Virus genome (UHGV): UHGV-1616770 | Direction: 5' to 3' (one strand) | From: a virus | DNA: 13,110 nt | Part shown: in pieces, positions 1 through 13,100 of the stretch | How positions within the stretch are numbered: position 1 is the first letter of the stretch | Layout of the letters: every line of letters begins with the position of its first letter | Notes under the pieces: generated by a model | What the model saw: only the letters and a program-made list of their open reading frames with translations | Databases searched by the model: none | Told to the model about the DNA's origin: nothing | Position numbers and translations under genes: made by a program

Positions 1-192
1 AAGTCGCTGTCGTTCTCAAAATCGGTGGAGCTGCATGACAAAGTCATCGGGCATTATCTGAACATAAAACACTATCAATAAGTTGGAGTCATTACCCACT
101 TGCTGGTGTGGTGCCTGCAACTGTCTCCCGGATAAATGCCGAGATAACCTTTGCACCTGAACTCACAGGAGCCTCCTATGTCATTAATTGCG

Positions 193-585
193 CTAGAGCG
201 CGCGATATGGAATTTGAAGATTAAGCTGGACCCAGCCATTCTTTTCGCCAACGGTTATTGAGGAAACAGCCTGGTAACTGAGACGATCGTCATCCTTAAA
301 CTCAAACAGTTCCCGCAATTTATCGGCTGTCTCAGTAATGAGTTTTGAACCAGAACCTGCGGGGACAAATAACTGAATAATGATTATCCCCGTGCGATAA
401 ACAACCGGCCCCGCGCCAATTTCATTAACTCCAGCCTGCCCGGGAATATTACTTAAACGCGCCCAGATTAACTTACCGGAAGGATCGAACGTTGGCCCGT
501 TCGGATACAATACGTCTTTTCCATCAATAACCGTCTGTGCCGTCATTCTGGAAATGACCGTATTTCTGATTTCAGTAAACGTCAT
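193..585 (-). CDS. Phage tail-completion / tail-terminator-like protein (last gene of the head-tail joining block)
   Basis: 130-aa ORF with ATG at 585..583 overlapping the upstream stop (ATGA) and TAG stop at 195..193. Function is assigned from position only, as the fifth small gene after the capsid gene in an HK97/SPP1-like order; no diagnostic motif was recognised. Confidence 0.5.
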   Translation of the reverse strand: MTFTEIRNTVISRMTAQTVIDGKDVLYPNGPTFDPSGKLIWARLSNIPGQAGVNEIGAGPVVYRTGIIIIQLFVPAGSGSKLITETADKLRELFEFKDDDRLSYQAVSSITVGEKNGWVQLNLQIPYRAL

Positions 586-962
586 TTGTAAGCCTGTAAA
601 ACACCATTAAAAGCGTTGGCATACACGCCAGTTGGCGCTTGTTGTGAATGACCGTTTTCAAGAGTCTCTGCATAAGGAAGGTTATTCTGGATATAAATAA
701 TTCCGTAATTTGCAGCTTTCGAAATAACTCCGATCCCACGCTGAACCGCAATCGTACCGTTCGGATCCACGTTATCAGATATACCAAAATCGGGATACTG
801 TAACGACACCATGTTGTTATTTCTGAAACGCCCGGTATCAACCGGAGCAGCAATATCAATAGCAGTAAGAATCTGAATAGCGATGTAGCGAATTTTCAGC
901 CCCACATCTTCCTCAATCATCCCGGCAAATATTGACGGTTCGATATCCCATGCCTTTGCCAT
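582..962 (-). CDS. Phage head-tail joining protein, HK97 gp10-like (tentative)
   Basis: 126-aa ORF with ATG at 962..960 directly after the upstream TAA (TAAATG junction) and an AAGGAG Shine-Dalgarno 7 nt upstream. Function is from synteny only. Confidence 0.5.
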   Translation of the reverse strand: MAKAWDIEPSIFAGMIEEDVGLKIRYIAIQILTAIDIAAPVDTGRFRNNNMVSLQYPDFGISDNVDPNGTIAVQRGIGVISKAANYGIIYIQNNLPYAETLENGHSQQAPTGVYANAFNGVLQAYK

Positions 963-1349
963 TTACGCTCTCCTTAACTGGATTGAGTAAACTGATGCGG
1001 AAGGATCTACACTCGCTGTAATTACCTCGTATCGTTGCAACTGCCTTGATACAGAATCATAAATCTCAATAATATGACCGACAGCGGGTTTATCCGTAAC
1101 CTCGCATACCAGAGCAGTTAATTTAAGGTCACCATGCAAAATATTAATCCCATCAATTCTGCCCAGCTTATAACGCGTCAACACACCTCGCCCGGTATAG
1201 GTTGCTGTGGATTCACCGCCAGTTTCAGTCACAGGATCCCAGTTCCGGTACGTAACGTAAGAACCAGAAAAATCACTCACGACGTCTGCTAAATCCTCAT
1301 CAAAAGCAGCGGCAACCTCTGACTGAATCTCTTCACGAAACCCCATCAT
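963..1349 (-). CDS. Phage head-closure / head-tail adaptor protein (tentative)
   Basis: 128-aa ORF with ATG at 1349..1347 overlapping the upstream stop (ATGA) and a GAGGGGGG RBS. Function is from synteny in the connector gene block. Confidence 0.5.
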   Translation of the reverse strand: MMGFREEIQSEVAAAFDEDLADVVSDFSGSYVTYRNWDPVTETGGESTATYTGRGVLTRYKLGRIDGINILHGDLKLTALVCEVTDKPAVGHIIEIYDSVSRQLQRYEVITASVDPSASVYSIQLRRA

Positions 1350-1741
1350 CCCCCCCTCACAACCCTGACTTGTGAGCGACTAAGTCCGTACGGTTTCAGC
1401 AGTGCTATCGCAAGCTGTAAATCGGGTTCAAGCAATGCAGTGCTGTTTGCTGGCAATTCAGCAAATGATTTCGATACACTGACCCCGTCAGCCGACACGG
1501 CTTTACTGATAACAACGCCTGAATCATTTTTCTGCTGAAACAACTTACCGACAGAGGCAATTCTGGCTGCATATGCTCCCGCAAGTTTTACCTCTTCCGG
1601 AATACGGGATGGGTTAATTTTCAGGCTGAAGCCATTAAGCCAGGCATTAGCCATTAAAACAGCTTTATTTTTAGCGTTCTCACTCGTCCAGGCGTTCCCA
1701 AACGCATTATCAACGTCATCACAGGTCACGTAAGTGATCAT
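1346..1741 (-). CDS. Phage gp6-like head-tail connector protein (tentative)
   Basis: 131-aa ORF with ATG at 1741..1739 and an AGGAG RBS 7 nt upstream. Size, N-terminal region and position two genes after the major capsid gene fit the gp6-like connector family; this is inference. Confidence 0.55.
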   Translation of the reverse strand: MITYVTCDDVDNAFGNAWTSENAKNKAVLMANAWLNGFSLKINPSRIPEEVKLAGAYAARIASVGKLFQQKNDSGVVISKAVSADGVSVSKSFAELPANSTALLEPDLQLAIALLKPYGLSRSQVRVVRGG

Positions 1742-1744
1742 GTG

Positions 1745-1969
1745 TTACTCCTGAGTTTTCCAGCCCAGAGCCTTCCAGTTGTCAACTTCATCAGGATGAA
1801 CATTAGCGATAGTTGGTGCGCCGGGAAACATCTGATAATCGGTCACCATAACCACTAACTCAATTTGCGTTTTTTGTGGCTCCTGAATTTGCTCCACATT
1901 CTGCTCCACCACTGCATTTTTTTGCGCGGCTTCACGCTGTGCTCTTTGCTCTTTAGTTAATCCGGCCAT
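1745..1969 (-). CDS. Small hypothetical phage protein between capsid and connector genes
   Basis: 74-aa ORF with ATG at 1969..1967 and a strong GGAGGG RBS 5 nt upstream, sitting immediately after a terminator-like hairpin. No family recognised. Confidence 0.5.
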   Translation of the reverse strand: MAGLTKEQRAQREAAQKNAVVEQNVEQIQEPQKTQIELVVMVTDYQMFPGAPTIANVHPDEVDNWKALGWKTQE

Positions 1970-1980
1970 ATACCCTCCAT

Positions 1981-2001
1981 TAAAAATGGGGCCGAAGCCC
2001 C
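1981..2001 (-). terminator. Intrinsic terminator-like hairpin downstream of the major capsid gene (minus strand)
   Basis: Minus-strand RNA reads GGGGC-UUCG-GCCCC (perfect 5-bp GC stem, UUCG tetraloop; plus 1988..2001) followed by AUUUUUA (plus 1981..1987). It lies 8 nt after the capsid stop at 2012 and just upstream of the RBS of the next gene. Confidence 0.5.
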
Positions 2002-2011
2002 GTTTGGATGT

Positions 2012-3151
2012 TTAACCAAGAATCAGACAACCATGTGCCGGTTTCACTGACGAAACACCCCATGCCAGTCCAACTTCATAGCGCACCTGGCGATACTGAC
2101 GATACAGTGCAATCTGGAACGTAATCCCTGAAATCGGGTCCGTAACATTCATTACATCATCAGCATTATCGCCACCTTCCGGCATTGCCGGAGTACGGGA
2201 TGCCAGCAGAAACGCGTTGCGATCAAACGCCATATTTGCAGTAAAGGAGCCAACAACTGTGATTGCAGTATCATCGGCCAGATCCTGACGCAGTCCTGGC
2301 GCTGCAAGAGTAATCAGATTGCTGGTCGCTGCTGCCACAACATACTGATTCGGATCGCCAGCGAACGTAACAATCTGACCTGCAGAAATACTCCCCGAAC
2401 CAGTATCAATGGAAATAAGAACATCGCCTTCTTTTTTCTCGCCATTCACGAGATAACCTGTTGCAGCAACCTTTGGCGCTCGTTTTACACCTGCCGAACT
2501 GTGAATATTGAATCCCTCCAGACGCCCCAACACGCCCTCACGCAGTAGCTGTTCAGTGCCGGATTCATTCACTTTAAACAATACAGACTGTTTTCCGCGC
2601 AAATTAGCAATGGCAGTGGAACCAAGCACCATCTGCAGATCTGTTGTCGGTGCGCCGTTATCCTCCAGAACCTGACGAGCCAGAGCAGCATCAGAAAGAT
2701 CATCTTTAACACCAAATGGCGTTGTCCCTGCGGTTCCCACGGCGCGGGAAGCACCGAAATACAACGCACCAAGATCAGCCTCAACCTCGTTTGCAAGGGC
2801 GCGAAAAGCCTGCTTGAACTGATCAGCCAGAATGGTGTTGTAAGTCCCTGAAGGGCCAAGAGCCAGTTGTTCTTCACCATTCCATTTAACCGGCGCCATT
2901 TTGGATTTAGTAATTTTTACATCAACAGTGCCAATATTTTGATCACCGGTATTCGGAGCTGACGGCCCCGGTACGATATCTTCGGTTTTCGCCTCAGGCG
3001 CAACTGGCGCGGTTACCGTCTGATCTTTTGCTGCGGCGTCAGCTTTTGCGTTTTTTGCTACCGCAGGGATAAAACCCACCTGCTCACGGGATACAACATC
3101 CAGGGCGGTGTAAATAGTCGGGATCAACCCGGTCAGGGTATTTCCAGCCAT
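2012..3151 (-). CDS. Phage major capsid protein
   Basis: Long ORF directly downstream of the scaffold gene in the canonical portal / F-like / scaffold / capsid order. The ORF-track start at 3244 is TTG; I place the start at the in-frame ATG 3151..3149 (MAGNTLTG...), which has an AAGGAA RBS about 10 nt upstream, giving 379 aa. TAA stop at 2014..2012. Confidence 0.8.
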   Translation of the reverse strand: MAGNTLTGLIPTIYTALDVVSREQVGFIPAVAKNAKADAAAKDQTVTAPVAPEAKTEDIVPGPSAPNTGDQNIGTVDVKITKSKMAPVKWNGEEQLALGPSGTYNTILADQFKQAFRALANEVEADLGALYFGASRAVGTAGTTPFGVKDDLSDAALARQVLEDNGAPTTDLQMVLGSTAIANLRGKQSVLFKVNESGTEQLLREGVLGRLEGFNIHSSAGVKRAPKVAATGYLVNGEKKEGDVLISIDTGSGSISAGQIVTFAGDPNQYVVAAATSNLITLAAPGLRQDLADDTAITVVGSFTANMAFDRNAFLLASRTPAMPEGGDNADDVMNVTDPISGITFQIALYRQYRQVRYEVGLAWGVSSVKPAHGCLILG

Positions 3152-3275
3152 AATTAAATATTCCTTAAAAATTTGCGTAATTGTGTATGGATTGAGTAGT
3201 GAGCTATCCAGCCCTGACACCAGCCCCCATCCGGAAGCTGGCAAATGTATTAATCAACGATTGTGATACCGTCTT

Positions 3276-4013
3276 TCAGTGCGTTTGCTTACCTGCAACA
3301 TCCAGTGCATCAAAAGCAGAGCGTTTCATCGTTTTCTGACCAATATCATGCTGTGTTGGACGGGAACCGCCGCCATTGTTGCCACTGGCTTTCAGGATGT
3401 AGTCTTTCTGAGGGTAATTTTCGACGAGGAACTCCAGCGCCTCATCAAACTGCGCCAGTTCTCCTGGCTTCGCGCGGGAATAAATTTTGTTGCCGGAAGC
3501 GTCATAAGCAACGATCTTCCCTTCTTCCACTTTGAATGCCTGTCCGAAGCGGGCTTGTAATAAATCTGCCGGGATCGCAATTTTATCGGCAATATATTTT
3601 GAACCCGCAAAACTACCGCCAATCATAGAATCGTAAAGCTGCTTCTCCAGCATCTGAGAGCGTTGCTTTTCTTCATCTAATTGCTGCTGAAAATTTTTCG
3701 TAATTTCTGCCTTAACCTGGTCAACCTGTTCCGCATCGATCAGCTTTTTTTGGTCGATTTTTGACAGCATTTCCAGTGCCTCAATCGCCTTCTTCGGGTC
3801 TTCGATAGCGGCAAACTTAGCCAGTTTTTCCTCTGCAGCTTCTTTAGCCAGGCGATGATTTTTTGCCTCGCCATTAAGCTCTGTAATTTTTTTTGTCGCC
3901 AGCGGTGCATCGAAGCCGATTTCTTTACCATCGTCGTGCACATAGACTGGCAGGCCAGCAGTATCAATTTCTGCGTATTGTTTTCCGTTAATCTCGACCG
4001 TTTTCAGTTTCAT
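3276..4013 (-). CDS. Phage scaffolding protein
   Basis: Highly charged E/K-rich, predicted coiled-coil protein between the head morphogenesis and capsid genes. The ORF-track start at 4085 is GTG and lies inside a hairpin; I prefer ATG 4013..4011 (MKLKTVEING..., 245 aa), with in-frame ATG 4058 as an alternative. TGA stop at 3278..3276. Confidence 0.65.
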   Translation of the reverse strand: MKLKTVEINGKQYAEIDTAGLPVYVHDDGKEIGFDAPLATKKITELNGEAKNHRLAKEAAEEKLAKFAAIEDPKKAIEALEMLSKIDQKKLIDAEQVDQVKAEITKNFQQQLDEEKQRSQMLEKQLYDSMIGGSFAGSKYIADKIAIPADLLQARFGQAFKVEEGKIVAYDASGNKIYSRAKPGELAQFDEALEFLVENYPQKDYILKASGNNGGGSRPTQHDIGQKTMKRSAFDALDVAGKQTH

Positions 4014-4073
4014 ATTAGTACCTGGTTTAAGTCTTCCGACAGTTACGCTGCTCACCATCCGGATCGCAGCAAT

Positions 4074-4096
4074 AAAAAAAGCCACCCGAAGGTAGC
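4074..4096 (-). terminator. Terminator-like hairpin between head-morphogenesis and scaffold genes (minus strand)
   Basis: Minus-strand RNA reads GCUACC-UUCG-GGUGGC (6-bp stem with one G-U pair, UUCG tetraloop; plus 4081..4096) followed by UUUUUUU (plus 4074..4080). It starts about 20 nt after the F-like gene stop at 4118. Confidence 0.45.
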
Positions 4097-4117
4097 CTGT
4101 TGTAATAAATGATTTAT

Positions 4118-5233
4118 TTAAATCCCTGCTTTTCTGAATACCTGTGCATCACGCTCACGGAGTTGCTTCAGCGTCAGCCATTCGCCTTTATCGGTGTAAA
4201 ATTCATCTGGCGACATACCGCCATCCCGAATCAGCTTTGCCCGGGTTTCCCCCACAATCTGTTTTTGTCTGGTGTAAGGCTGACGCAAAAACCATTCCCT
4301 GTAGGTTGTATCTCCGGCCACCACGCCATCCATGCTGGCCCGCTCAGCCGGGGAAATATCACGAACATCAATACCCAGTTCCTTCGCTGATTTCAGAATG
4401 AACGTTTCCGTTGAGCGGCAGCAGAAATGAATTTTTCCCGGCCCATGCAAATAAGGCACACTGTGACCTACAGGTTTATTATCCAGCGTATATTTGAGGC
4501 GATCCCTGATTCGACATTGTGGCGTAGTACGATTATCAAGCGTTGATAACCATTGCTTACCCTTAATCAAATCATTATTCGCGCTGGCAAAACTCTCACG
4601 GGCAGTAGCAGCAAGATGTCCAACCGCTGTTTTTGCAATGCTGGCCGCATTAGCCCGGCTCATCTGCAATGCACCATCCTGAAATCCCTTGCTGACATGT
4701 CCCCGAATTTTTCTTGCGATCTGCTCATTGGTATCCCCCAGCAAAAAACCCTGACGCACCGTATTTGTTATGCGTCTGAGCCGATCCGCCTCAAGATCCA
4801 AGGCCCACTCACTGAGCAGTCGTCCCTGGAATGGTCGCGCCATTGCAGCGGCGTAAAGTGCATCAGAAGATATACCAACCAGAGGGTGAACATCAGCAAC
4901 AAAATCAGGTAGCAGAGAATCAAACAGACTTAACTGATAACCAGCCTCATAAATTGCCAGCTCGTTCAGCTCTCCGGAGAGACTGGTAAACATGCTGTTA
5001 ATAGCAGCGCGGTTAACCTCTCTGACACTCGCCAGAAGTGACTCCAGGCGCGTAACGGTAAAACTACCAGGATCGAGGCTGTCCAGTGCTACCAGCAGGC
5101 GAGCTGTAAGCTCCGCATCGCTGTCATTCAGTATTTTCACCATTCTGGCAGCCACACCAGTGCTATAGCGGGATATCCAGACTGCATGAGCAATTGATTC
5201 ATCACGCAGCCGTTCATTCACGGTTTGCATCAT
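4118..5233 (-). CDS. Phage head morphogenesis protein, Mu F-like / SPP1 gp7 family
   Basis: 371-aa ORF immediately after the portal gene, with ATG at 5233..5231 overlapping the portal 3' end by 20 nt. It contains the conserved Cys/His-bearing region (…TPQCRIRDR…GPGKIHFCCRS…) typical of Mu F-like minor head proteins. TAA stop at 4120..4118. Confidence 0.8.
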   Translation of the reverse strand: MMQTVNERLRDESIAHAVWISRYSTGVAARMVKILNDSDAELTARLLVALDSLDPGSFTVTRLESLLASVREVNRAAINSMFTSLSGELNELAIYEAGYQLSLFDSLLPDFVADVHPLVGISSDALYAAAMARPFQGRLLSEWALDLEADRLRRITNTVRQGFLLGDTNEQIARKIRGHVSKGFQDGALQMSRANAASIAKTAVGHLAATARESFASANNDLIKGKQWLSTLDNRTTPQCRIRDRLKYTLDNKPVGHSVPYLHGPGKIHFCCRSTETFILKSAKELGIDVRDISPAERASMDGVVAGDTTYREWFLRQPYTRQKQIVGETRAKLIRDGGMSPDEFYTDKGEWLTLKQLRERDAQVFRKAGI

Positions 5234-6620
5234 TGATTTCCATCAGCATTACACTCTGATTTTTTAATTCATCGATCACTTCCTCTGGACGGGAATCCTG
5301 ATCGATAAATTTCAACGCCTGCAACACCCGAACCGCATCAATCTGACGTATATCACCGCCCTGACGCAATGACTGAACAGCCAGCGCGGAGGATGAGTCA
5401 AACACCTGGGCAGATACATCCAGTTCAGTGCGCACATCCACATTGCCACCGCAACTCTCTCCGCTCCATTCCGCCATTATCTGGAGAATATTATCGAGGG
5501 CATCTTCGAGGGAGTTCGCCATTGTATAAAGCGGCGAGTGTTCCTGCATCCGCTCTTCATTAGTCTGATCAACAGATTTGGTGGATGTATTTTCAGCCCG
5601 CAGAAGTTTAGCGCCGGCATGACGCATCTGATTTTCCAGCTTCTCAAGTGATGTTTCGCCAGATTCTATCGCTGCGCCACTATGTTCAACATATTCGAGG
5701 CCATTTTTTGTTCTGTCCTCAAAAATCGTAGCGGTGGATGCACCAACCGGCAGTTCTTCATTCCTGTCCAGCCCGTAGGCCACCAGCAATGGAACGCGGG
5801 CAACATGAAGAATATTGTCCTGCTCGCTCTGGCTTTGCCAGTGCTTGATATTCAGCAAGCCAAGATTAAGCAATGGCGGTGTACCACGCATAAACCCTGT
5901 TTTCTTCGTATACAGTGTTACCAGAGGAATATCATCACGGCTGGTATTCCATGACTCGTGAAGCGTCCAGACAGATTCGCCATTAGTACCTTCGCTGCGT
6001 CGATAAATTTCAACGCAACGGGGCATAATATGGCGGATCTGCTCCACCTTCTTCTGCCCGAAATCATCACCATCAATAATGATGACCTCTTTTATACGCA
6101 AATCAGTGAGAACAACTTTCCCTTTTTCAACTTTCGATTTCCATCCAATAACCTGGCGTGGATTCAGCATCGTAACGTACGGACGACCACCGGCCGCGTT
6201 TTCATCGGCTTTTGTCCGAATCTCTTTCATATCCGTTCGTGGATAGTCCACCAGCGCATGTGCCACACCATACTGAAATGCGAGGCTGAAAAATTGCTGC
6301 GCCCACACATCCAGTCGGCTCCCCTCCATGTCGATATTTTCTGCATATTCCCTGATTTTTGCCGGCGTTTCCTCACTCAATACTGTCGGCTCTGCAAATA
6401 TGCGCCCAATATTTTGCTTGATGCTTTCTTCATACACAGGAAGTAGCGTAGCCACAGACAGGCGTTTTTTATAAGCGTCTTCATCTTCGTTAGGCCATTT
6501 TGGGAGATAATTTTCCCCCTGCCTGCGCATTTCAAGCGTACCGCCCATCAGTGCGTCGTTAATATCCCACGCCTCCAGCATATCGTTATAGTCGAGGTTG
6601 GGTGTTGATATATCAGCCAT
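5214..6620 (-). CDS. Phage portal protein
   Basis: 468-aa ORF starting 2 nt after the TerL stop (ATG 6620..6618), in the standard position between terminase large subunit and head morphogenesis gene; the size fits SPP1-type portals. Confidence 0.85.
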   Translation of the reverse strand: MADISTPNLDYNDMLEAWDINDALMGGTLEMRRQGENYLPKWPNEDEDAYKKRLSVATLLPVYEESIKQNIGRIFAEPTVLSEETPAKIREYAENIDMEGSRLDVWAQQFFSLAFQYGVAHALVDYPRTDMKEIRTKADENAAGGRPYVTMLNPRQVIGWKSKVEKGKVVLTDLRIKEVIIIDGDDFGQKKVEQIRHIMPRCVEIYRRSEGTNGESVWTLHESWNTSRDDIPLVTLYTKKTGFMRGTPPLLNLGLLNIKHWQSQSEQDNILHVARVPLLVAYGLDRNEELPVGASTATIFEDRTKNGLEYVEHSGAAIESGETSLEKLENQMRHAGAKLLRAENTSTKSVDQTNEERMQEHSPLYTMANSLEDALDNILQIMAEWSGESCGGNVDVRTELDVSAQVFDSSSALAVQSLRQGGDIRQIDAVRVLQALKFIDQDSRPEEVIDELKNQSVMLMEINDANRE

Positions 6621-6622
6621 AA

Positions 6623-7924
6623 TTAAATCCGAAGTGATGTGACTCTTCCGGTCGGTTTGACAATAGGGAATTGCTTAACGATGAAATAACCTCCGGCATC
6701 ATTCGGGTGATCATTGCCAGATTTTTTATCAGGTTCCCCCTTCTCATCCCAGACCTGTTGCTCCAGAGATTCGGCATATAACGGGCAACGCTTCACATTA
6801 ACTTTATAGCGACGCTCACCATTGGCATTGCAGAACATTGCATTCATTGAGTTAACGCGATCTTTTACTGGCGGGTTCGAGCTGTTCACCACAACGTTAA
6901 AACCAGCCTGCTTAAGCTGGGCTATATCCGTCGTACTTGCGTTACTTGATTTTCTGGAATCCCCGGAAGCATCTGGATAAATATAAATTTCCCTCACTTT
7001 CCGGTAATCATTCCCATCATACAGCCAGAAGCGTTCTTTAATGATGCGGATCATATCCGGCGTATCGTAGGCATTGATGATTTCAGTTACCGCACATGGA
7101 AGCCCCAAACGCAGCACATGGACGATTCCCGCCATCTTTCCAACGTTAAAATCCATCCCAATATAAATCGGCTCCCCTGGCTGCTCCACTTCTTCGCAAT
7201 TATTCAGTTTCCGGTCAAACTGATGGTAAACAGTACCACTTGTCAGGTTAGTAAACTGTCCTCGAAGATAGGCTTTAATCAGCTCTGGAGGGTATGATTC
7301 AAGAAGCGAAGGAATGTAATCTGCTGGCAGGTTCTTTTCATTATCGAAAGTAGATGCCTGCACCAGACCATACAGTGAGGCCAGCTCTGTTTTTTCACGC
7401 ACGGCTTTAACAAACTGCTCGTAGACAAATTTGAATCCTTCCGGCGTGGTTGTAACGTCAATACCGTTGCGAAGTCCATCAATCTTATAACGCATACGCG
7501 CAATTATCTTGCGCCACGCCGTTCTGGCTTTTTCCTTCGGCAAAATGTCCAGTTCATCCACCAACGCATTACCAATTTTGAAACCGACGATCGTTTGTGG
7601 CTTCTCCATCGATCTGCAGATAGTGGTTCCCCGATACTGGCGTCCGTAATAAAAGTGAACCTCTTTATTTCCCTCATTAATTTTTACGTTCAATCCCCAG
7701 TCAGCAGCAACTTCTTCCACTGTAGGGTAAAAAATATCGCGAATTTGGGGATACGTTGGCGCAAAATATCCCTGATTTATACCAGGATGTTCCCAAATCC
7801 CCTTGCATATGCCACCACACCCAATCCATGTTTTACCCGAGCCAAAACCAGCGACATAGGCTTTAAATTTGTGGGGCATTGAAAGAAATCGCGCCTGAGG
7901 CACATTAAGCGTCGGAGAGATCAT
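6623..7924 (-). CDS. Terminase large subunit (TerL)
   Basis: Walker A motif GFGSGKT near the N-terminus and a hydrophobic-DE Walker B-like segment (ALVDELD). The ORF-track start at 7933 is GTG; I prefer ATG 7924..7922, which sits 8 nt after an AAGGAG RBS (ATG 7930 is a possible alternative), overlapping the terS 3' end. TAA stop at 6625..6623. Confidence 0.9.
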   Translation of the reverse strand: MISPTLNVPQARFLSMPHKFKAYVAGFGSGKTWIGCGGICKGIWEHPGINQGYFAPTYPQIRDIFYPTVEEVAADWGLNVKINEGNKEVHFYYGRQYRGTTICRSMEKPQTIVGFKIGNALVDELDILPKEKARTAWRKIIARMRYKIDGLRNGIDVTTTPEGFKFVYEQFVKAVREKTELASLYGLVQASTFDNEKNLPADYIPSLLESYPPELIKAYLRGQFTNLTSGTVYHQFDRKLNNCEEVEQPGEPIYIGMDFNVGKMAGIVHVLRLGLPCAVTEIINAYDTPDMIRIIKERFWLYDGNDYRKVREIYIYPDASGDSRKSSNASTTDIAQLKQAGFNVVVNSSNPPVKDRVNSMNAMFCNANGERRYKVNVKRCPLYAESLEQQVWDEKGEPDKKSGNDHPNDAGGYFIVKQFPIVKPTGRVTSLRI

Positions 7925-8999
7925 CTTCATCACTCCTTACTCTGGCATCAACCACATTAATATTGATCGCCACAGGTTGGGGATGTTCATTATCTTCCAC
8001 CGTTTCGATCTCTTTGCACAGCTTCTGGTTTTCCATTCTGCGCCGTTCAATTTCCAGTTCCTGTAGCCGCTTATCTGCACATAAAGCCCCACCAGCAGCA
8101 AGCAAACGCAACAATTCACGCCGGGCGGCAGCCTTATCCTCCAGCAGGATCTCAACACCAAATTTTCCGAGCTTTGCCCCTGCATATAATTGCCGCGCTT
8201 CCCCATCAAGCAGAGTGGTATCAGCCATATAAAGCTGCCCCGTTCCCTCACCGCAGCACTTCGGGCAGTCCGGATTGGGTATGGCGTTATCAACAAAGCC
8301 AAGGCCACCATATTCCGGCTCGGGTTTGCCATCTCTGGAGGCCTGCGACGCTGCCTTATCGAATTCTGCTATATCGCGCCACTGGTAGTGATGATTCTCG
8401 CCCCAGCAATAACGGCAGTTAACACGGCGAAATTGTGCCAACTGATTGGGGTCGGCCTGGACAATGGCCATCAACTGACTCACCAGTAAATCCAGGTCTG
8501 CGGTATAGCGTTTCTGGTACTGATTGCGGAAGTAGCTGATAGCACGAAAAACCTTAGGATTTCTTAGGAGCTGGCTGGCGGTTACGTAGGCCGCATTCCC
8601 CTCTGACTCGTATCCTGCCAGGCGATATGCCTCAACGAGTTTTTTCCCCTGGGCAACCAGCATTGCGAATTTCGCCTGCTGGTCAGAAACGCCGAATTCA
8701 TCGGGACAGAACGAAATTTCTTCCGCATCGCCCTCATTCAGGTACGCATCGGATACTGGCTTTTTTTCCTGAGATTTTCCGTTCCGCTTTTGTGCAGTCT
8801 GCGCAGATTTTTTCTGCGCACTTTTTTGCGCAGTTTTGCGCATTTCTGTCTGCGCATTTTTCGGAGGTTTTTTGATGTAACGACGGGCTGTTGCGTAATT
8901 CAGTCCCCTGGCTTCACACCATGCCACCGGAGATATACCGGAGCGGGTGTATTCAGCAATATACTCCTGCTGCAACGCCCCCCAGTCCGGTCTGCTCAT
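7905..8999 (-). CDS. Terminase small subunit (TerS), unusually long multi-domain form
   Basis: 364-aa ORF immediately upstream of TerL. It has an N-terminal HTH-like segment, a basic K/A/Q-repeat linker, a segment resembling the terminase small-subunit HTH (…AYRLAGYESEGNAAYVTASQLLRNPKVFRAI…), a Cys cluster (C-x2-C…HH…C-x2-CC) and a C-terminal coiled-coil-like tail. ATG at 8999..8997, AGGA RBS. Confidence 0.7.
   Translation of the reverse strand: MSRPDWGALQQEYIAEYTRSGISPVAWCEARGLNYATARRYIKKPPKNAQTEMRKTAQKSAQKKSAQTAQKRNGKSQEKKPVSDAYLNEGDAEEISFCPDEFGVSDQQAKFAMLVAQGKKLVEAYRLAGYESEGNAAYVTASQLLRNPKVFRAISYFRNQYQKRYTADLDLLVSQLMAIVQADPNQLAQFRRVNCRYCWGENHHYQWRDIAEFDKAASQASRDGKPEPEYGGLGFVDNAIPNPDCPKCCGEGTGQLYMADTTLLDGEARQLYAGAKLGKFGVEILLEDKAAARRELLRLLAAGGALCADKRLQELEIERRRMENQKLCKEIETVEDNEHPQPVAININVVDARVRSDEDDLSDA
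8791..8856. repeat. Cluster of palindromic TGCGCA hexamers interleaved with T/A tracts inside the terS 5' region
   Basis: Plus-strand TGCGCA at 8800, 8815, 8827, 8837 and 8851, plus TGTGCA at 8791, each flanked by T-runs, with 9-15 bp spacing. On the coding strand these encode the Ala-Gln-Lys repeat linker of TerS. Confidence 0.5.
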
Positions 9000-9002
9000 C
9001 AG

Positions 9003-9254
9003 TTAGTCCTGATTTTTATCCACCCTGAGTAGTTCGCGCAGGGCAAAGGCATCCCCTTTTCTGGCAAGCTTAAACAATGCCGCCCGTAGCTCGGCTTCAC
9101 CTTTCGCTCTGCCCTTACGGATGGACGCGTAAAAATTTGTCATTGCTTCCCGATTTTCTTTCAGTCGGTTCAGATCAACATCCAGAACGTCAGCGATTTG
9201 TTGTGCAGTCATCCGGCACGCTGCCAGAGACTCGACTTTCGAATACGGAATCAT
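9003..9254 (-). CDS. Small helix-turn-helix-like protein upstream of terS (packaging-associated or regulatory; function unknown)
   Basis: 83-aa ORF with ATG at 9254..9252 and a GGGGGTGA RBS; its stop at 9005..9003 is 3 nt before the terS ATG. The sequence is predicted helical and basic C-terminally (…MTAQQIADVLDVDLNRLK…). It overlaps the 3' end of the upstream reading frame by 65 nt. Confidence 0.5.
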   Translation of the reverse strand: MIPYSKVESLAACRMTAQQIADVLDVDLNRLKENREAMTNFYASIRKGRAKGEAELRAALFKLARKGDAFALRELLRVDKNQD

Positions 9255-9726
9255 TTGTCACCCCCATTAATATGCAGGGTGTCTTCTTCCTGTATTTTTC
9301 GTGAAGGATTTTTACTGCAGCGTTGTTCCAGGTGACCTGATGATGAATGCGTTTATGGCTGGCGCCCATCAGTGAGATTTTTACGCACGACGGCGCATAC
9401 ATGACGGAATAAAAACTTTTAACGTAGGTCCCGGAATCCAGATACAGCTCGGTCATTCCGCCGCTGTTTTTCTGCGTCTGTTTCTGCCCTAACTGGACAG
9501 CACCGATCGTCATAAACAATTCACCACGGCGACCGAGATTCGTGTACGTATTCACATCCTCGTTAATGCGCCCCATGAATGAGAACGGTCGATCAACCGA
9601 ACAGATAAAGCTGTTCATTGCCTTGCGTTTCACCCACGAAGCATGGCCGCCATTGTCACCAAGAAAATCCCCGCCCTGCGACATAGCGATGGAAAGCACG
9701 GGCATTGATTCGTAATACGCCAGCAT
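9190..9726 (-). CDS. C-terminal portion of the GT-A-like gene (same reading frame, downstream of the in-frame amber)
   Basis: 178 codons open in the same frame as 9769..10122 (10122 minus 9726 is 396, a multiple of 3). There is no Shine-Dalgarno before the ATG at 9726, so independent translation is doubtful. TGA stop at 9192..9190. Confidence 0.4.
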   Translation of the reverse strand: MLAYYESMPVLSIAMSQGGDFLGDNGGHASWVKRKAMNSFICSVDRPFSFMGRINEDVNTYTNLGRRGELFMTIGAVQLGQKQTQKNSGGMTELYLDSGTYVKSFYSVMYAPSCVKISLMGASHKRIHHQVTWNNAAVKILHEKYRKKTPCILMGVTNDSVFESRVSGSVPDDCTTNR

Positions 9727-9768
9727 TTCAGAAAGGATCGCATCCAGTTTCCTTATCGGGAAATAGGC

Positions 9769-10122
9769 CTAGTCATAGTTGCGATCCACCCGAAACTGGA
9801 ACTCGTGATAATCATCATCGAGCTGAATGAAGTATTTACACCCGACCAGTTTTGCCAGGTCGAAACAGGCATTACGGGCGTAAAAAATTGAGCGGCGGTC
9901 ACCAAAATTATCGGCTTCGTCAAAACGACTGGCAATATCGGCTTTGGAAAATACCAGCACCTGTTCACCAAATTCAGCCATGTACTGATGCCGTGTCTTA
10001 TCTTCATCATCAACAACGATAAAAATTTTCCCGGTATAGCCAGCACGACGCAACGTCCGGTAAGTCAGAACTTTGTCCGGTCGCCCGTGAGTCAGAATAA
10101 AGGCGCAAAAATCATCACGCAT
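9769..10122 (-). CDS. GT-A-fold glycosyltransferase-like protein, N-terminal portion ending at an in-frame amber codon
   Basis: Strong GGAGGAGG RBS and ATG at 10122..10120 overlapping the ParB-like gene stop (ATGCGTGA). The N-terminus has a strand-helix-strand pattern (FCAFILTHGRPDKVLTYRTLRRAGYTGKIFIVVDDEDK) and a later DxD-like motif (YFIQLDDDYHEF), resembling nucleotide-sugar transferases. The frame ends at TAG (plus 9769..9771 reads CTA). Confidence 0.55.
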   Translation of the reverse strand: MRDDFCAFILTHGRPDKVLTYRTLRRAGYTGKIFIVVDDEDKTRHQYMAEFGEQVLVFSKADIASRFDEADNFGDRRSIFYARNACFDLAKLVGCKYFIQLDDDYHEFQFRVDRNYD

Positions 10123-10903
10123 ATTCCTCCTCCCCGCTATGCATGATCGCCACCATGCGCTGCGTCATTCGGACAAATCCATTTTCAATAGCCTGCTGAT
10201 AATCAATGATCACCAGCGCCGACTCCTCGAAAAGGCACTGAATTTCAGCGGGGGCATGAGCGTAATAGTCCGCAATTCTGCTGAAATTAAACACCGTGTG
10301 ACGTTCTGCCGCACACAGGAGGAATTTCTCAATATCAGGATCAAGGGACGCCGAACGTATCCGGCTGATCAGCTCCTGAGTTTTCGTATCGTCGTACAGT
10401 TCACTGATATCCGGTTTACCGCCCGACGGCTCATAAACAGGCGTATCAATTTTCGTCGTATACGGCTCCTCCTTATTTCCTGTACCGGGCAAAACATCCG
10501 TCAACAGTTCATCAATTTCTGTCGGGCCGAAGCCTGTCAGGGAGACATCAAAATCAGCATTGATTAGGTCCGACAGCTCCATCCGCAACAGATCTTCATC
10601 CCAGCCAGCATTCATCGGTAGGCGATTATCTGCCAGGCGGTACGCCTTTTTCTGCTCATCCGTCAGGCCAGACAGAACAATGACCGGAACAGAATCCATT
10701 TTGAGCATTTCAGCCGCCATAACACGACCGTGACCCGCAATAATTTCGCCCTTTTCGTCAATCAGCACCGGATTAGTCCAGCCGAATTGCTTAATACTTT
10801 CTACCAGTTGTGCCACCTGCTCAGTACTGTGCGTCCTGGCGTTGTGCGCATACGGTGACAATTCTTGTAATGGGCGATAGACTATCTTTAATTTCTCGCT
10901 CAT
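10115..10903 (-). CDS. ParB-like nuclease domain (ParB/Srx fold) protein
   Basis: 262-aa ORF whose N-terminal domain matches the ParB N-terminal pattern (…YRPLQELSPYAHNARTHS…QLVESIKQFGWTNPVLID…EIIAGHGRVMAA…). ATG at 10903..10901 with an AAGG RBS; the stop overlaps the start of the downstream gene. Confidence 0.8.
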   Translation of the reverse strand: MSEKLKIVYRPLQELSPYAHNARTHSTEQVAQLVESIKQFGWTNPVLIDEKGEIIAGHGRVMAAEMLKMDSVPVIVLSGLTDEQKKAYRLADNRLPMNAGWDEDLLRMELSDLINADFDVSLTGFGPTEIDELLTDVLPGTGNKEEPYTTKIDTPVYEPSGGKPDISELYDDTKTQELISRIRSASLDPDIEKFLLCAAERHTVFNFSRIADYYAHAPAEIQCLFEESALVIIDYQQAIENGFVRMTQRMVAIMHSGEEEYA

Positions 10904-10918
10904 ACAGCCTTGCTTTAT

Positions 10919-10954
10919 GAATAAAACGCACCCCAGCAGCCAGTGCTACTGGGG
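10919..10954 (-). terminator. GC-rich hairpin plus U-tract downstream of trkG (putative intrinsic terminator)
   Basis: Plus CCCCAG (10931..10936) and CTGGGG (10949..10954) are reverse complements, with an inner CCAGT/ACTGG pair. On the minus-strand RNA the hairpin is followed by UGCG then UUUUAU (plus 10921..10926). It lies between the trkG stop (11041) and the ParB-like start (10903). Confidence 0.45.
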
Positions 10955-11040
10955 GCGGAGGTGTTGCTGGTAAAGTTAGGTATTGGATCAATGAGTGAGT
11001 CAATATAATATTAAACTCACAATTATAAATCAGCCATATA

Positions 11041-12498
11041 TTAGGAGCGCCAAAAAAAACCTGAAAACAATATAATAACAGGATAAATTTCAAGGCGACC
11101 AAGAATCATAGCTATGCACATTAAATATTTTGCAATGTCATTAAGCACTCCGAATGACGATGCAGTAGCCCCAAAACCTAATCCCATATTATTAATACAT
11201 GCAGCCACTGTTGCAAATGATGTAAGAAAATCATATCCCATACCATTTAACACCAGTATAAAAAACACCGTGAAGAGAGTATAAAGAAAAAAGAAACTCC
11301 ATACAGACCTCATTACACGATCTGTAACTATCTTCCCTCCTACATTTACACTCAACAACGCTCTGGGATGAGAAAGCTGATTTATCTCGTGTTTGCTTTG
11401 TTTGAAAAGTATAAGAAATCGAAGTGACTTAATTCCACCACAAGTTGAACCTATACATCCCCCAAAGAAACTTGACGACAGCAAAAACACTATCGTGTGC
11501 GTGGGCCAGTTTGCATAATCCTGCGTAGCTAAACCATTATCAGTGAGCATGGAGCTGGCAAGAAAAAACGAATGAATAAAACTTCCATGCAAGTCATACA
11601 TACCTATATGCCAGACCTGGAAAGAGGTAACAATGATCACCCCTAAGGCTATTAACAGAAAGAAACGAAGTTCAATATCTCTGATTAAAGGTTTTATCGT
11701 TTTCCTGCTAATAACAATATACCAAAGAGTGAAGTTGAAAGCCGATAGCAGGGAAAAAGAACCAGCCACCAGCTCAACCAAATAGTTATTAAAATATCCG
11801 ATACTCTCGCTATGAGTTGAGAAACCACCAAGCGAAACTGTGGAAATCCCGTGACAAATAGCATCAAACAAAGGCATTCCTGCAAGTCTATAACAGACAA
11901 TACAAGCAATACCTAATAAAGAATAAGTTATCCACAGTGTCCGTGACGTATCGGCCAGGCGGGGAGTGAGTTTGTCATCCTTAAATGGCCCCGGCATTTC
12001 TGACTGATAAAGCTTTGCACCACCAATACCCAATAATGGCAATACAGCAACCGCCAGAACAATAACTCCTAAACCACCTATAAAATTTAACTGTGACCGA
12101 TAGTACAAATATGCCCGAGGTAATGAACTAACATCATCAATTACAGTTGCTCCTGTTGTTGTTATTCCAGAAACCCCTTCAAACAGAGCATCAATGAACG
12201 TTAAATTAAGTTCTGAGTCAATCCATAAAGGGAATGCACTAATAACAGAAAACAAAATCCAAAACATTACAATTATAATAAACCCATCACGGGTACGTAA
12301 TTGAATGCCAGATTTCTTAGTTGTATACCACGCTCCGCCACCAATGCAAAAAAATATAACGAAAGTTATAAAGAAAACGAACAGGCTTTTTTCTTTATAA
12401 AACAATGCTACAACCATTGGTGGCAACATTGAAAGACTATAGAGCCAAACCAGGAACCCACACATATGAGTAACAACTCTTACATGAGATGTATTCAT
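11041..12498 (-). CDS. trkG: TrkH/TrkG-family potassium uptake protein (prophage moron)
   Basis: Polytopic membrane protein; from ATG 12498..12496 (MNTSHVRVVTHMCGFLVW…) it is 485 aa, which I recognise as E. coli Rac-prophage TrkG. The ORF-track start at 12516 is TTG and likely an over-extension. The gene is visibly more AT-rich than its flanks. TAA stop at 11043..11041. Confidence 0.9.
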   Translation of the reverse strand: MNTSHVRVVTHMCGFLVWLYSLSMLPPMVVALFYKEKSLFVFFITFVIFFCIGGGAWYTTKKSGIQLRTRDGFIIIVMFWILFSVISAFPLWIDSELNLTFIDALFEGVSGITTTGATVIDDVSSLPRAYLYYRSQLNFIGGLGVIVLAVAVLPLLGIGGAKLYQSEMPGPFKDDKLTPRLADTSRTLWITYSLLGIACIVCYRLAGMPLFDAICHGISTVSLGGFSTHSESIGYFNNYLVELVAGSFSLLSAFNFTLWYIVISRKTIKPLIRDIELRFFLLIALGVIIVTSFQVWHIGMYDLHGSFIHSFFLASSMLTDNGLATQDYANWPTHTIVFLLSSSFFGGCIGSTCGGIKSLRFLILFKQSKHEINQLSHPRALLSVNVGGKIVTDRVMRSVWSFFFLYTLFTVFFILVLNGMGYDFLTSFATVAACINNMGLGFGATASSFGVLNDIAKYLMCIAMILGRLEIYPVIILFSGFFWRS

Positions 12499-12516
12499 AT
12501 CTAAATATTCTTTCAA

Positions 12517-12549
12517 TTATAACCACCTTGCTGCAATATTATGATTATA
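12517..12549 (-). promoter_or_regulatory. Candidate sigma70 -10 elements upstream of trkG
   Basis: Two perfect TATAAT hexamers on the minus strand (plus 12517..12522 and 12544..12549) in the AT-rich gap between Rz and trkG. The -35 regions are poor, so this is a weak call. Confidence 0.25.
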
Positions 12550-12635
12550 CTGTATAAAATTTAACTCCTCTTAGATCTTACTTCACTGTTCCTTATGAAA
12601 CAATCATCAAAATGAATCATATTGTAGTTAAGATT

Positions 12636-13100
12636 TTACTTTAAACACTGTTCGGTTATGTATTGCTGAGCACCTTCAAGTTGGGCCTGCATCATTACCA
12701 GTCGTTCCCGGAGGGTGAAATAATCCCGTTCAGCGGTGTCTGCCAGTCGGGGGGAGGCTGCATTATCCACGCCGGAGGCGGTGGTGGCTTCACGCACTGA
12801 CTGACAGACTGCTTTGATGTGCAACCGACGACGACCAGCGGCAACATCATCACGCAGAGCATCATTTTCAGCTTTCGCATCAGCTAACTCCTTCGTGTAT
12901 TTTGCATCGAGCGCAGCAACATCACGCTGACGCATCTGCATGTCAGTAATTGCCGCGTTCGCCAGCTTCAGTTCTCTGGCATTTTTGTCGCGCTGGGCTT
13001 TGTAGGTAATGGCGTTATCACGGTAATGATTAACAGCCCATGACAGGCAGACGATGATGCAGATAACCAGAGCGGAGATAATCGCGGTTACTCTGTTCAT
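12636..13100 (-). CDS. Rz: Rz-like i-spanin (inner-membrane spanin)
   Basis: 154-aa ORF with an N-terminal transmembrane segment ([18 protein letters not shown]) followed by a charged coiled-coil-like periplasmic domain; it is near-identical to phage lambda Rz as I recall it, and contains the embedded Rz1 frame. Coordinates follow the ORF track. Confidence 0.9.
12695..12880 (-). CDS. Rz1: Rz1-like o-spanin (outer-membrane lipoprotein), embedded in the +1 frame of Rz
   Basis: 61-aa ORF with signal peptide and lipobox (LPLVVVGC) followed by a proline-rich segment ([13 protein letters not shown]), nested wholly within Rz in another frame, which is the classic lambda Rz/Rz1 arrangement. Confidence 0.85.

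Follow-up and report, generated by a model that had tools for sequence, protein, structure and literature searches.

The window, i.e., the whole stretch of 13,110 nt that was analyzed here, contains a trkG gene that is located between the last gene of a phage lysis cassette and a set of phage packaging and head genes. Every gene in the window is on the minus strand. The earlier note on this DNA gave no strand for trkG and the signals around it; all of them are on the minus strand and co-oriented with the late genes. The following features were identified, listed from the lysis cassette to the tail genes.

12636 to 13100, minus strand: Rz (i-spanin), final gene of the lysis cassette and neighbor of trkG on its upstream side (Pfam Phage_lysis, E=3.5e-53)
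12695 to 12880, embedded in Rz: Rz1 (o-spanin), its translation having a lipobox-like VVGC and a proline-rich tail
12499 to 12635, minus strand: leader/promoter region of trkG, 137 nt, AT-rich (25.5% GC)
12544 to 12549, minus strand: TATAAT box 1, from its sequence the most likely candidate for the trkG -10 element
12516 to 12521, minus strand: TATAAT box 2, the last T of which is the first base of a TTG codon
11041 to 12516, minus strand: trkG coding sequence, 485 amino acids from the annotated ATG at 12498 or 491 amino acids from the TTG at 12516
10974 to 11040, minus strand: 3' untranslated end of the trkG cassette, AT-rich (26.9% GC)
10921 to 10954, minus strand: intrinsic-terminator-like hairpin (10954-10931) and T-rich tail, just upstream of the ParB-like gene
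10115 to 10903, minus strand: ParB/Srx-like gene, full length, 262 amino acids (Pfam ParB_N, E=8.8e-07)
9190 to 10122, minus strand: TAGT/GREB1-like glycosyltransferase gene (Pfam TAGT, E=8.2e-09) with an amber codon at 9771-9769
193 to 8999, minus strand: packaging and head module (Pfam matches; no match in K-12), consisting of the features on the next seven lines
7905 to 8999, minus strand: TerS (Pfam)
6623 to 7933, minus strand: TerL (Pfam)
5214 to 6620, minus strand: portal (Pfam)
4118 to 5233, minus strand: MuF-like (Pfam)
3276 to 4085, minus strand: scaffold (Pfam)
2012 to 3244, minus strand: P22-type capsid (Pfam)
193 to 1969, minus strand: head-tail genes (Pfam)
1 to 96, no strand assigned: IS1 end inside the tail-tube gene, 100% identical to the ends of the IS1A copies in L003

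The Rz gene is 100% identical to the lambda/DLP12-type Rz down to position 12711 only, and its last 25 codons correspond to a different allele. The terminase, portal, and head open reading frames are full length, and their sizes match those of the annotated intact genes of strain 127. An Rfam scan of the whole window gave no match.

The trkG product matched Pfam family PF02386 with an E value of 5.9e-144 and 480.7 bits (cutoff 27) over profile positions 3-500 of 502, the TIGR00933 model with 413.4 bits (cutoff 331), and the V. parahaemolyticus TrkH structures 4J9U/3PJZ with an E value of 3.9e-121. Its score against the NCBIfam TrkH equivalog model was 453 bits, which is below the cutoff of 866 bits. 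All four residues D121, E231, G322, and D327, which have been studied in TrkG, are present. Only 3 of 485 residues differ from K-12 TrkG, namely, N330, S341, and Y458 in the window, which are S, L, and C in K-12; all three sites are polymorphic, and 14 of 149 IMG/VR copies have the combination seen in the window. Judged by these matches, the gene encodes a full-length cation transporter subunit of the TrkH family, and this subunit is TrkG rather than TrkH. Family and full-length architecture are shared with the TrkH proteins of E. coli and V. parahaemolyticus (3PJZ, 4J9U), but TrkG is a paralog and not an ortholog of TrkH. It was shown that K-12 TrkG mediates Na+-dependent K+ uptake as well as Na+ uptake, neither of which is observed for TrkH, and that it shares TrkA with TrkH, its K+ uptake being TrkA dependent (PMC9898762). 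This TrkA-dependent K+ uptake is transferred here, by sequence identity, from K-12 to the window protein, which would thus be expected to behave in the same way.

The earlier note had named TrkG as cargo of the K-12 Rac prophage and suggested that the window may represent a less decayed relative of Rac. Both statements hold. Window positions 10650-13080 were aligned to Rac of strain MG1655 over 2431 bp without gaps, with 16 mismatches (99.34% identity), and the matched K-12 stretch consists of the Rz remnant followed by trkG and ynaK. The K-12 Rac trkG (b1363) has the same neighbors, namely, rzpR/rzoR upstream and ynaK downstream. The differences concern the state of these neighbors. In K-12 Rac, Rz has lost its 5' end and is a pseudogene fused to ydaW; ynaK retains 264 nt from the 5' end of the 262-codon ParB-like gene and is joined to ydaY; and about 10.6 kb of packaging and head genes, corresponding to window positions 1-10649, have been deleted. 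Since window positions 1-10649 gave no match in K-12, the window represents the state that preceded the loss from K-12 of the genes for terminase, portal, head, and tail shaft. An identity of the window with K-12 Rac itself can be dismissed, as K-12 matches positions 10650-13080 only.

The packaging and head genes had been described as an apparently intact set. They do form full-length open reading frames that are absent from K-12, but the prophage that carries them is not intact. Its tail-tube gene is interrupted, about 70 nt downstream of the start, by the IS1 end at 1-96 (phage homology resumes at position 96), and a CAG codon of strain 127 is replaced by TAG at 9771-9769 in the 310-codon TAGT-like gene. 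In view of the IS1 end and the amber codon, there is no support for an intact and inducible phage, and this reading was discarded. K-12 Rac is the more decayed of the two, but the prophage of the window is damaged as well.

A trkG gene was found in 1551 of 5426 complete E. coli genomes, nearly always as a single copy and with at least 99% identity. In 709 of these 5426 genomes, at least 80% of the 13-kb window was present in one place, with up to 99.1% identity, which implies that about 46% (709/1551) of the trkG-positive complete E. coli genomes keep the adjacent head/packaging module. The trkG and recE genes were among the best-conserved Rac genes in a published survey (PMC5700373). The layout of the window was also found in ten deposited phage records. 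Record ON470614 (Escherichia phage vB_EcoS-666R9) contains a Rac-type integrase, RecET, RacC, KilR, and SieB. This record and the prophages of E. coli strains 127 and S1-INA-02-A have the same order Rz-trkG-ParB-TAGT-TerS-TerL-portal-head, with 97.9-99.1% identity over 99-100% of the window. They have an intact 310-amino-acid TAGT-like gene, and some have an intact tail-tube gene, whereas the window has the amber codon and the IS1 end. The vB_EcoS GenBank records stem from a study of phages found within genomes of clinical isolates (bioRxiv 10.1101/2022.06.29.498070), and they are not taken here as proof of viable particles. The layout is ordinary, since hundreds of sequenced E. coli carry trkG together with head/packaging genes, and the trkG cassette in a Rac-type prophage is already known and common.

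The same module, with 100% identity over positions 10800-12750, is also present in a lambda-like prophage that is located beside ybhC in strain SY3626 and carries cIII, kil, gam, bet, exo, ren, and P. Its occurrence there is as expected for mosaic lambdoid phages. The window itself contains no integrase, att site, or early genes. It could consequently derive from another lambdoid prophage that received the Rz-trkG-ParB-head module by recombination, in which case the relationship to Rac would apply to the module only. We consider this unlikely, given that the closest full-length matches (99.1%) are located at the Rac site, next to ttcA/uspF, and that the Rac-type integrase, RecET, RacC, and KilR are present in deposited prophage records with the module. 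A Rac-type prophage is thus the preferred source of the window.

The leader of trkG contains two perfect TATAAT hexamers on the coding (minus) strand, at 12549-12544 and at 12521-12516, in agreement with what had been noticed in the sequence. Dinucleotide shuffles of the leader contained on average 0.27 TATAAT; at least one was present in 24% and at least two in 2.6% of the shuffles. The presence of two is modestly above chance. A good -35 element or an extended -10 was not found for either hexamer, the best -35 having at most 3 of 6 matches, and a simple promoter scan chose another, weak candidate at 12645-12616. Any assignment of the -10 element is a guess because neither TATAAT is accompanied by such an element, but the hexamer at 12549-12544 is probably the -10 element of trkG. 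Strain MFDS1019527 has, at the icd locus, a diverged allele of trkG that is 89.6% identical and matches window positions 10991-12709 only. Box 1 is kept in this allele as well as upstream of the chromosomal homolog of E. fergusonii; box 2 is kept in L169 and E. fergusonii.

Information on the K-12 gene is pertinent here, since the 137-nt leader is 100% identical to the K-12 Rac leader, and promoter activity, the effect of H-NS, and the transport properties can therefore be transferred from K-12 to the window copy. The K-12 trkG was described as low in GC and located in Rac; promoter activity of the fragment upstream of it was seen with a lux reporter, and its transcription is increased in hns and hns stpA mutants, being only partly repressed, and not silenced, in the wild type (PMC9898762). 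A genomic-SELEX peak of the RNA polymerase RpoD holoenzyme, obtained in vitro with K-12, was assigned to the trkG promoter (PMC5811629). No transcription start site of trkG was found in the literature searched.

It may be argued that trkG lacks a promoter of its own, that the TATAAT hexamers are by-products of AT-richness, and that the gene is a member of the Q-dependent late operon that is expressed on induction only. The AT-rich island as a whole contains 7 TATAAT on both strands, compared to 2.8 +/- 1.7 in shuffles, and this reading would also agree with the frequency at which single hexamers arise in leader shuffles, with the poor -35 elements, and with the overlap of one TATAAT with the probable start codon. 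We regard it as very improbable. The leader is the one that, in K-12, drives lux and is bound in vitro by the RNA polymerase holoenzyme. Moreover, the DNA between ydaW and Rz has been lost in K-12 Rac, yet trkG is expressed at about the level of trkH and contributes to K+ uptake. Finally, E. fergusonii and the allele at the icd locus (89.6% identity) have kept both hexamers. These data argue for a promoter that belongs to trkG.

A Shine-Dalgarno sequence, AAGGTGG, is located at 12529-12523, 6 nt before the TTG at 12516, whereas the annotated ATG has no comparable one. Most homologs of the TrkG clade have 491 amino acids, and those examined begin with TTG or GTG behind a Shine-Dalgarno sequence. 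A ribosome-profiling study tried an alternative start codon for trkG, and the lacZ test was inconclusive (PMC4909307). Translation of trkG probably starts at TTG 12516, giving a protein of 491 amino acids. Box 2 sits between AAGGTGG and this TTG and could be a translation-initiation sequence instead of, or as well as, a -10 element. If TTG 12516 is used, box 2 is part of the translation-initiation region, which leaves box 1 as the sole candidate for the -10 element.

As had been estimated by eye, trkG is far more AT-rich than the surrounding phage genes. Its coding sequence has 38.1% GC (GC1 42%, GC2 40%, GC3 32.5%), as compared to 48.0% for the left flank (1-10903) and 52% for Rz. Windows of 1458 bp along the left flank range from 45.1% to 51.2% (standard deviation, 1.5%). 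None of them is below 45.1%, so that trkG, which lies about 6.7 standard deviations under their mean, does not match its flanks. The change in composition is abrupt: positions 10904-10973 have 54.3% GC and positions 10974-11040 only 26.9%, and the other border is at about 12636. The bias of trkG does not result from its amino acid content, because the GC3 of the neighboring genes is 42-54%. The view that the low GC content reflects the amino acids of a hydrophobic membrane protein rather than foreign origin, and that there is no compositional island, is refuted by the GC3 value and by the noncoding flanks: TrkG does contain many Phe, Ile, and Leu residues, with codons that are AT-rich at positions 1 and 2, in line with its GC1 and GC2, but the noncoding leader and 3' end are lower in GC still, an Enterobacter homolog that is 70% identical has 56.7% GC and a GC3 of 72%, and E. 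coli trkH has 53% GC (PMC9898762).

The borders of the island were further defined by comparison with relatives. Four of them (L015, L054, L071, and L082 of IMG/VR) possess the ParB-TAGT-terminase module in the absence of trkG and are homologous to the window only as far as 10926-10973. Their lysis cassette differs, consisting of a holin followed by an M15 peptidase or a GH108 endolysin. Taken together with the match of the icd-locus allele, which begins at 10991, this indicates that the cargo ends between 10973 and 10991, a position that coincides with the jump in GC content. The other junction coincides with the 3' end of Rz or lies slightly inside it, since Rz alleles without trkG lose similarity at 12658-12711. 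An exact empty site, with the ParB gene directly beside Rz, was not found in the 5426 E. coli genomes when a joined query was used, and we therefore infer the insertion and its borders from distant relatives with another lysis cassette. Only short AT-rich chance matches were found when direct or inverted repeats were sought around the cassette, i.e., there is no signature of transposition. The icd-locus allele retains both TATAAT, the AAGGTGG, the TTG, and a 74-nt remnant of the Rz 3' end; the linkage of the Rz 3' end to trkG is thus long-standing across alleles that have diverged by about 10%. We conclude that the trkG cassette is probably an AT-rich insert of foreign origin, about 1.66 kb long (approximately 10974-12635), between Rz/Rz1 and the ParB-like/terminase genes.

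The most prominent terminator-like signal is located outside these borders. On the minus strand, the hairpin at 10954-10931 reads CCCCAGTAGCACTGGCTGCTGGGG followed by TGCGTTTTAT; it has 10 pairs, 7 of which are G-C, and was the top-ranked terminator-like site of the whole window. Its predicted fold has -25.2 kcal/mol (z=-4.06), and 0 of 200 shuffles folded as well. The hairpin begins 86 nt past the trkG stop codon and ends 27 nt before the start of the ParB-like gene, and the T-tract that follows is interrupted (TGCGTTTTAT). In the trkG-less relatives, homology covers the interval between about 10973 and the start of ParB, in which a hairpin that has diverged and the T-tract TTTTATTCATAAAGC are found, whereas the icd-locus cassette with its diverged trkG has no such hairpin. 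Because of this distribution, the hairpin is, on comparative grounds, part of the phage backbone and not of the trkG cassette. The proposal that trkG is followed by its own terminator-like signal can thus be retained for the presence of a strong hairpin with a T-rich tail before the next gene, but the signal does not belong to trkG.

Classical lambdoid morons, such as lambda bor and lom, are extra genes in the late region that are located after the lysis genes, deviate in composition, and have their own promoter, active in the prophage, followed by a terminator. Morons of HK97 and HK022 were reportedly described by Juhala, Hendrix, and colleagues. The trkG cassette is similar to the classical examples in its deviant composition and in its place in the late region after the lysis genes. 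It differs in three respects. Lambda bor is antisense, whereas trkG is co-oriented with the late operon; the terminator downstream of trkG is backbone sequence that is common to trkG-less relatives; and the cargo is a paralog of a housekeeping-type transporter rather than a surface or virulence factor. Of the moron layout that the earlier note had recognized, the deviant composition is confirmed; an insert of cargo type and, by identity with K-12, a promoter of its own are probable, whereas the terminator is not its own. The predicted layout is one that works like a moron with a borrowed, putative terminator.

Proteins of the TrkG clade, with 61-79% identity, are widespread in Enterobacterales. 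Where examined, the homologs were chromosomal and not prophage borne, as in E. fergusonii (79%), Citrobacter (77%), Pectobacterium (76%), and Enterobacter (70%), those of E. fergusonii and Citrobacter being the nearest full-length proteins outside E. coli. The Enterobacter homolog has the GC content of its host, about 57%. Among the homologs searched, there was no donor that combined matching DNA composition with high identity. In E. fergusonii, the upstream region retains both TATAAT and the in-frame TTG, which suggests that trkG was captured together with promoter-proximal DNA.

Taken together, the window very probably contains the trkG cassette already known from lambdoid prophages of the Rac family, located in the late operon of a prophage that has kept its head/packaging module. 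In the lysogen, trkG would be transcribed from its own sigma-70 promoter in the leader of about 25% GC, the activity of which is transferred from K-12, and H-NS and StpA would, as in K-12, dampen this transcription without silencing it. Transcription may then stop at the hairpin 10954-10931, so that the silent packaging genes would not be read. The TrkG membrane subunit, together with the TrkA of the host, would carry out Na+-dependent K+ uptake. During lytic growth, by analogy with the lambda paradigm, Q-modified RNA polymerase may read through the hairpin.

The constant position of the cassette directly after the holin-endolysin-spanin genes could, in principle, serve the phage and not the lysogen only. 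Late read-through would then raise the level of TrkG, and the resulting K+/Na+ uptake could alter the membrane potential or the ion balance, which in turn might tune holin triggering or aid late phage development. This idea is highly doubtful, and a novelty at the TTG start is likelier. The linkage between the Rz 3' end and trkG, and the lack of an empty site in E. coli, are recorded alongside it.

For the biology of Rac-type prophages, trkG is a textbook case of a prophage-borne gene that benefits the host, and it has been characterized genetically and biochemically in K-12. The present analysis has little import beyond annotation. The refinements that it offers are the borders of the cassette at about 10974-12635, the assignment of the terminator to the phage backbone, the proportion of trkG-positive genomes that keep the head/packaging module, and the probable TTG start. 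If TTG 12516 is the true start of TrkG, the K-12 annotation would be six residues short.

An in-frame TTG codon with the Shine-Dalgarno sequence AAGGTGG 6 nt upstream is present at window positions 12514-12529, and translation from this codon would yield a TrkG of 491 amino acids. The majority of the TrkG-clade homologues are also 491 amino acids long, and those examined start with TTG or GTG. The annotation of K-12 TrkG, which comprises 485 amino acids starting from ATG, may be six residues too short. The question of the trkG start was left undecided by a ribosome-profiling paper (PMC4909307). In L060, from IMG/VR, a transposase-like (insertion-sequence) segment at positions 1-268 abuts GGTTATAATTG on the upstream side, with the junction corresponding to window 12524/12525. 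This insertion deletes the remaining trkG leader, so that TATAAT box 1 and the greater part of the Shine-Dalgarno sequence are missing.

E. coli MFDS1019527 (L169, positions 5543-7240) carries a second allele of trkG, which has diverged to 89.6% nucleotide identity and has a GC content of 37%. It is located between iraM and icd, at the e14/icd locus, with a transposase remnant alongside. Since this allele retains the leader and a 74-nt remnant of the Rz 3' end, the junction between Rz and trkG predates the divergence of the window-type and L169 alleles. Comparison with lambda/DLP12-type Rz revealed 100% identity down to position 12711 and lower identity below it (window 12636-12711), and the last 25 Rz codons represent a different allele, with the terminus EQCLK vs EQCR in lambda. 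There is therefore a mosaic joint inside Rz, near the trkG insert.

The window contains two lesions, each described with reference to strain 127, an E. coli with a close full-length match at the Rac site:
Window 1-96: terminal part of an IS1 element, matching the IS1A ends of strain 127 at 100% identity
Window 9769-9771, minus strand: amber codon, TAG here vs CAG in strain 127
Since the tail-tube gene is broken by IS1 roughly 70 nt past its start, the prophage is probably tail-defective. The amber codon cuts the TAGT/GREB1-like glycosyltransferase gene (9190-10122, minus strand; 310 amino acids) into ORFs of 117 and 178 amino acids.

At 9190-10903, ParB/Srx-like and TET-associated-glycosyltransferase-like genes are paired immediately upstream of the terminase genes. 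The two genes may work together as a DNA-modification or packaging-accessory module. The window itself contains no TET/JBP gene. The TerS gene (7905-8999, minus strand) is of unusual length (364 amino acids), and its Terminase_2 domain is restricted to residues 123-316. Inside the late operon there are further good terminator-like hairpins on the minus strand, one after the MuF-like gene (4079-4098) and one after the capsid gene (1988-2001).

trkG was also detected, with 99.9% identity, on 15 plasmids (plasmid hits H141-H150), mostly large and conjugative, whose hosts include Citrobacter freundii, Klebsiella quasipneumoniae, and Enterobacter. Furthermore, E. coli SY3626 (L001) carries the Rz-trkG-ParB-head module with 100% identity across window 10800-12750, in a lambda-like prophage (cIII, kil, gam, bet, exo, ren, P) beside ybhC, in the lambda attachment region. 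The presence of the module in this prophage shows that Rac-type and lambda-type prophages exchange modules.
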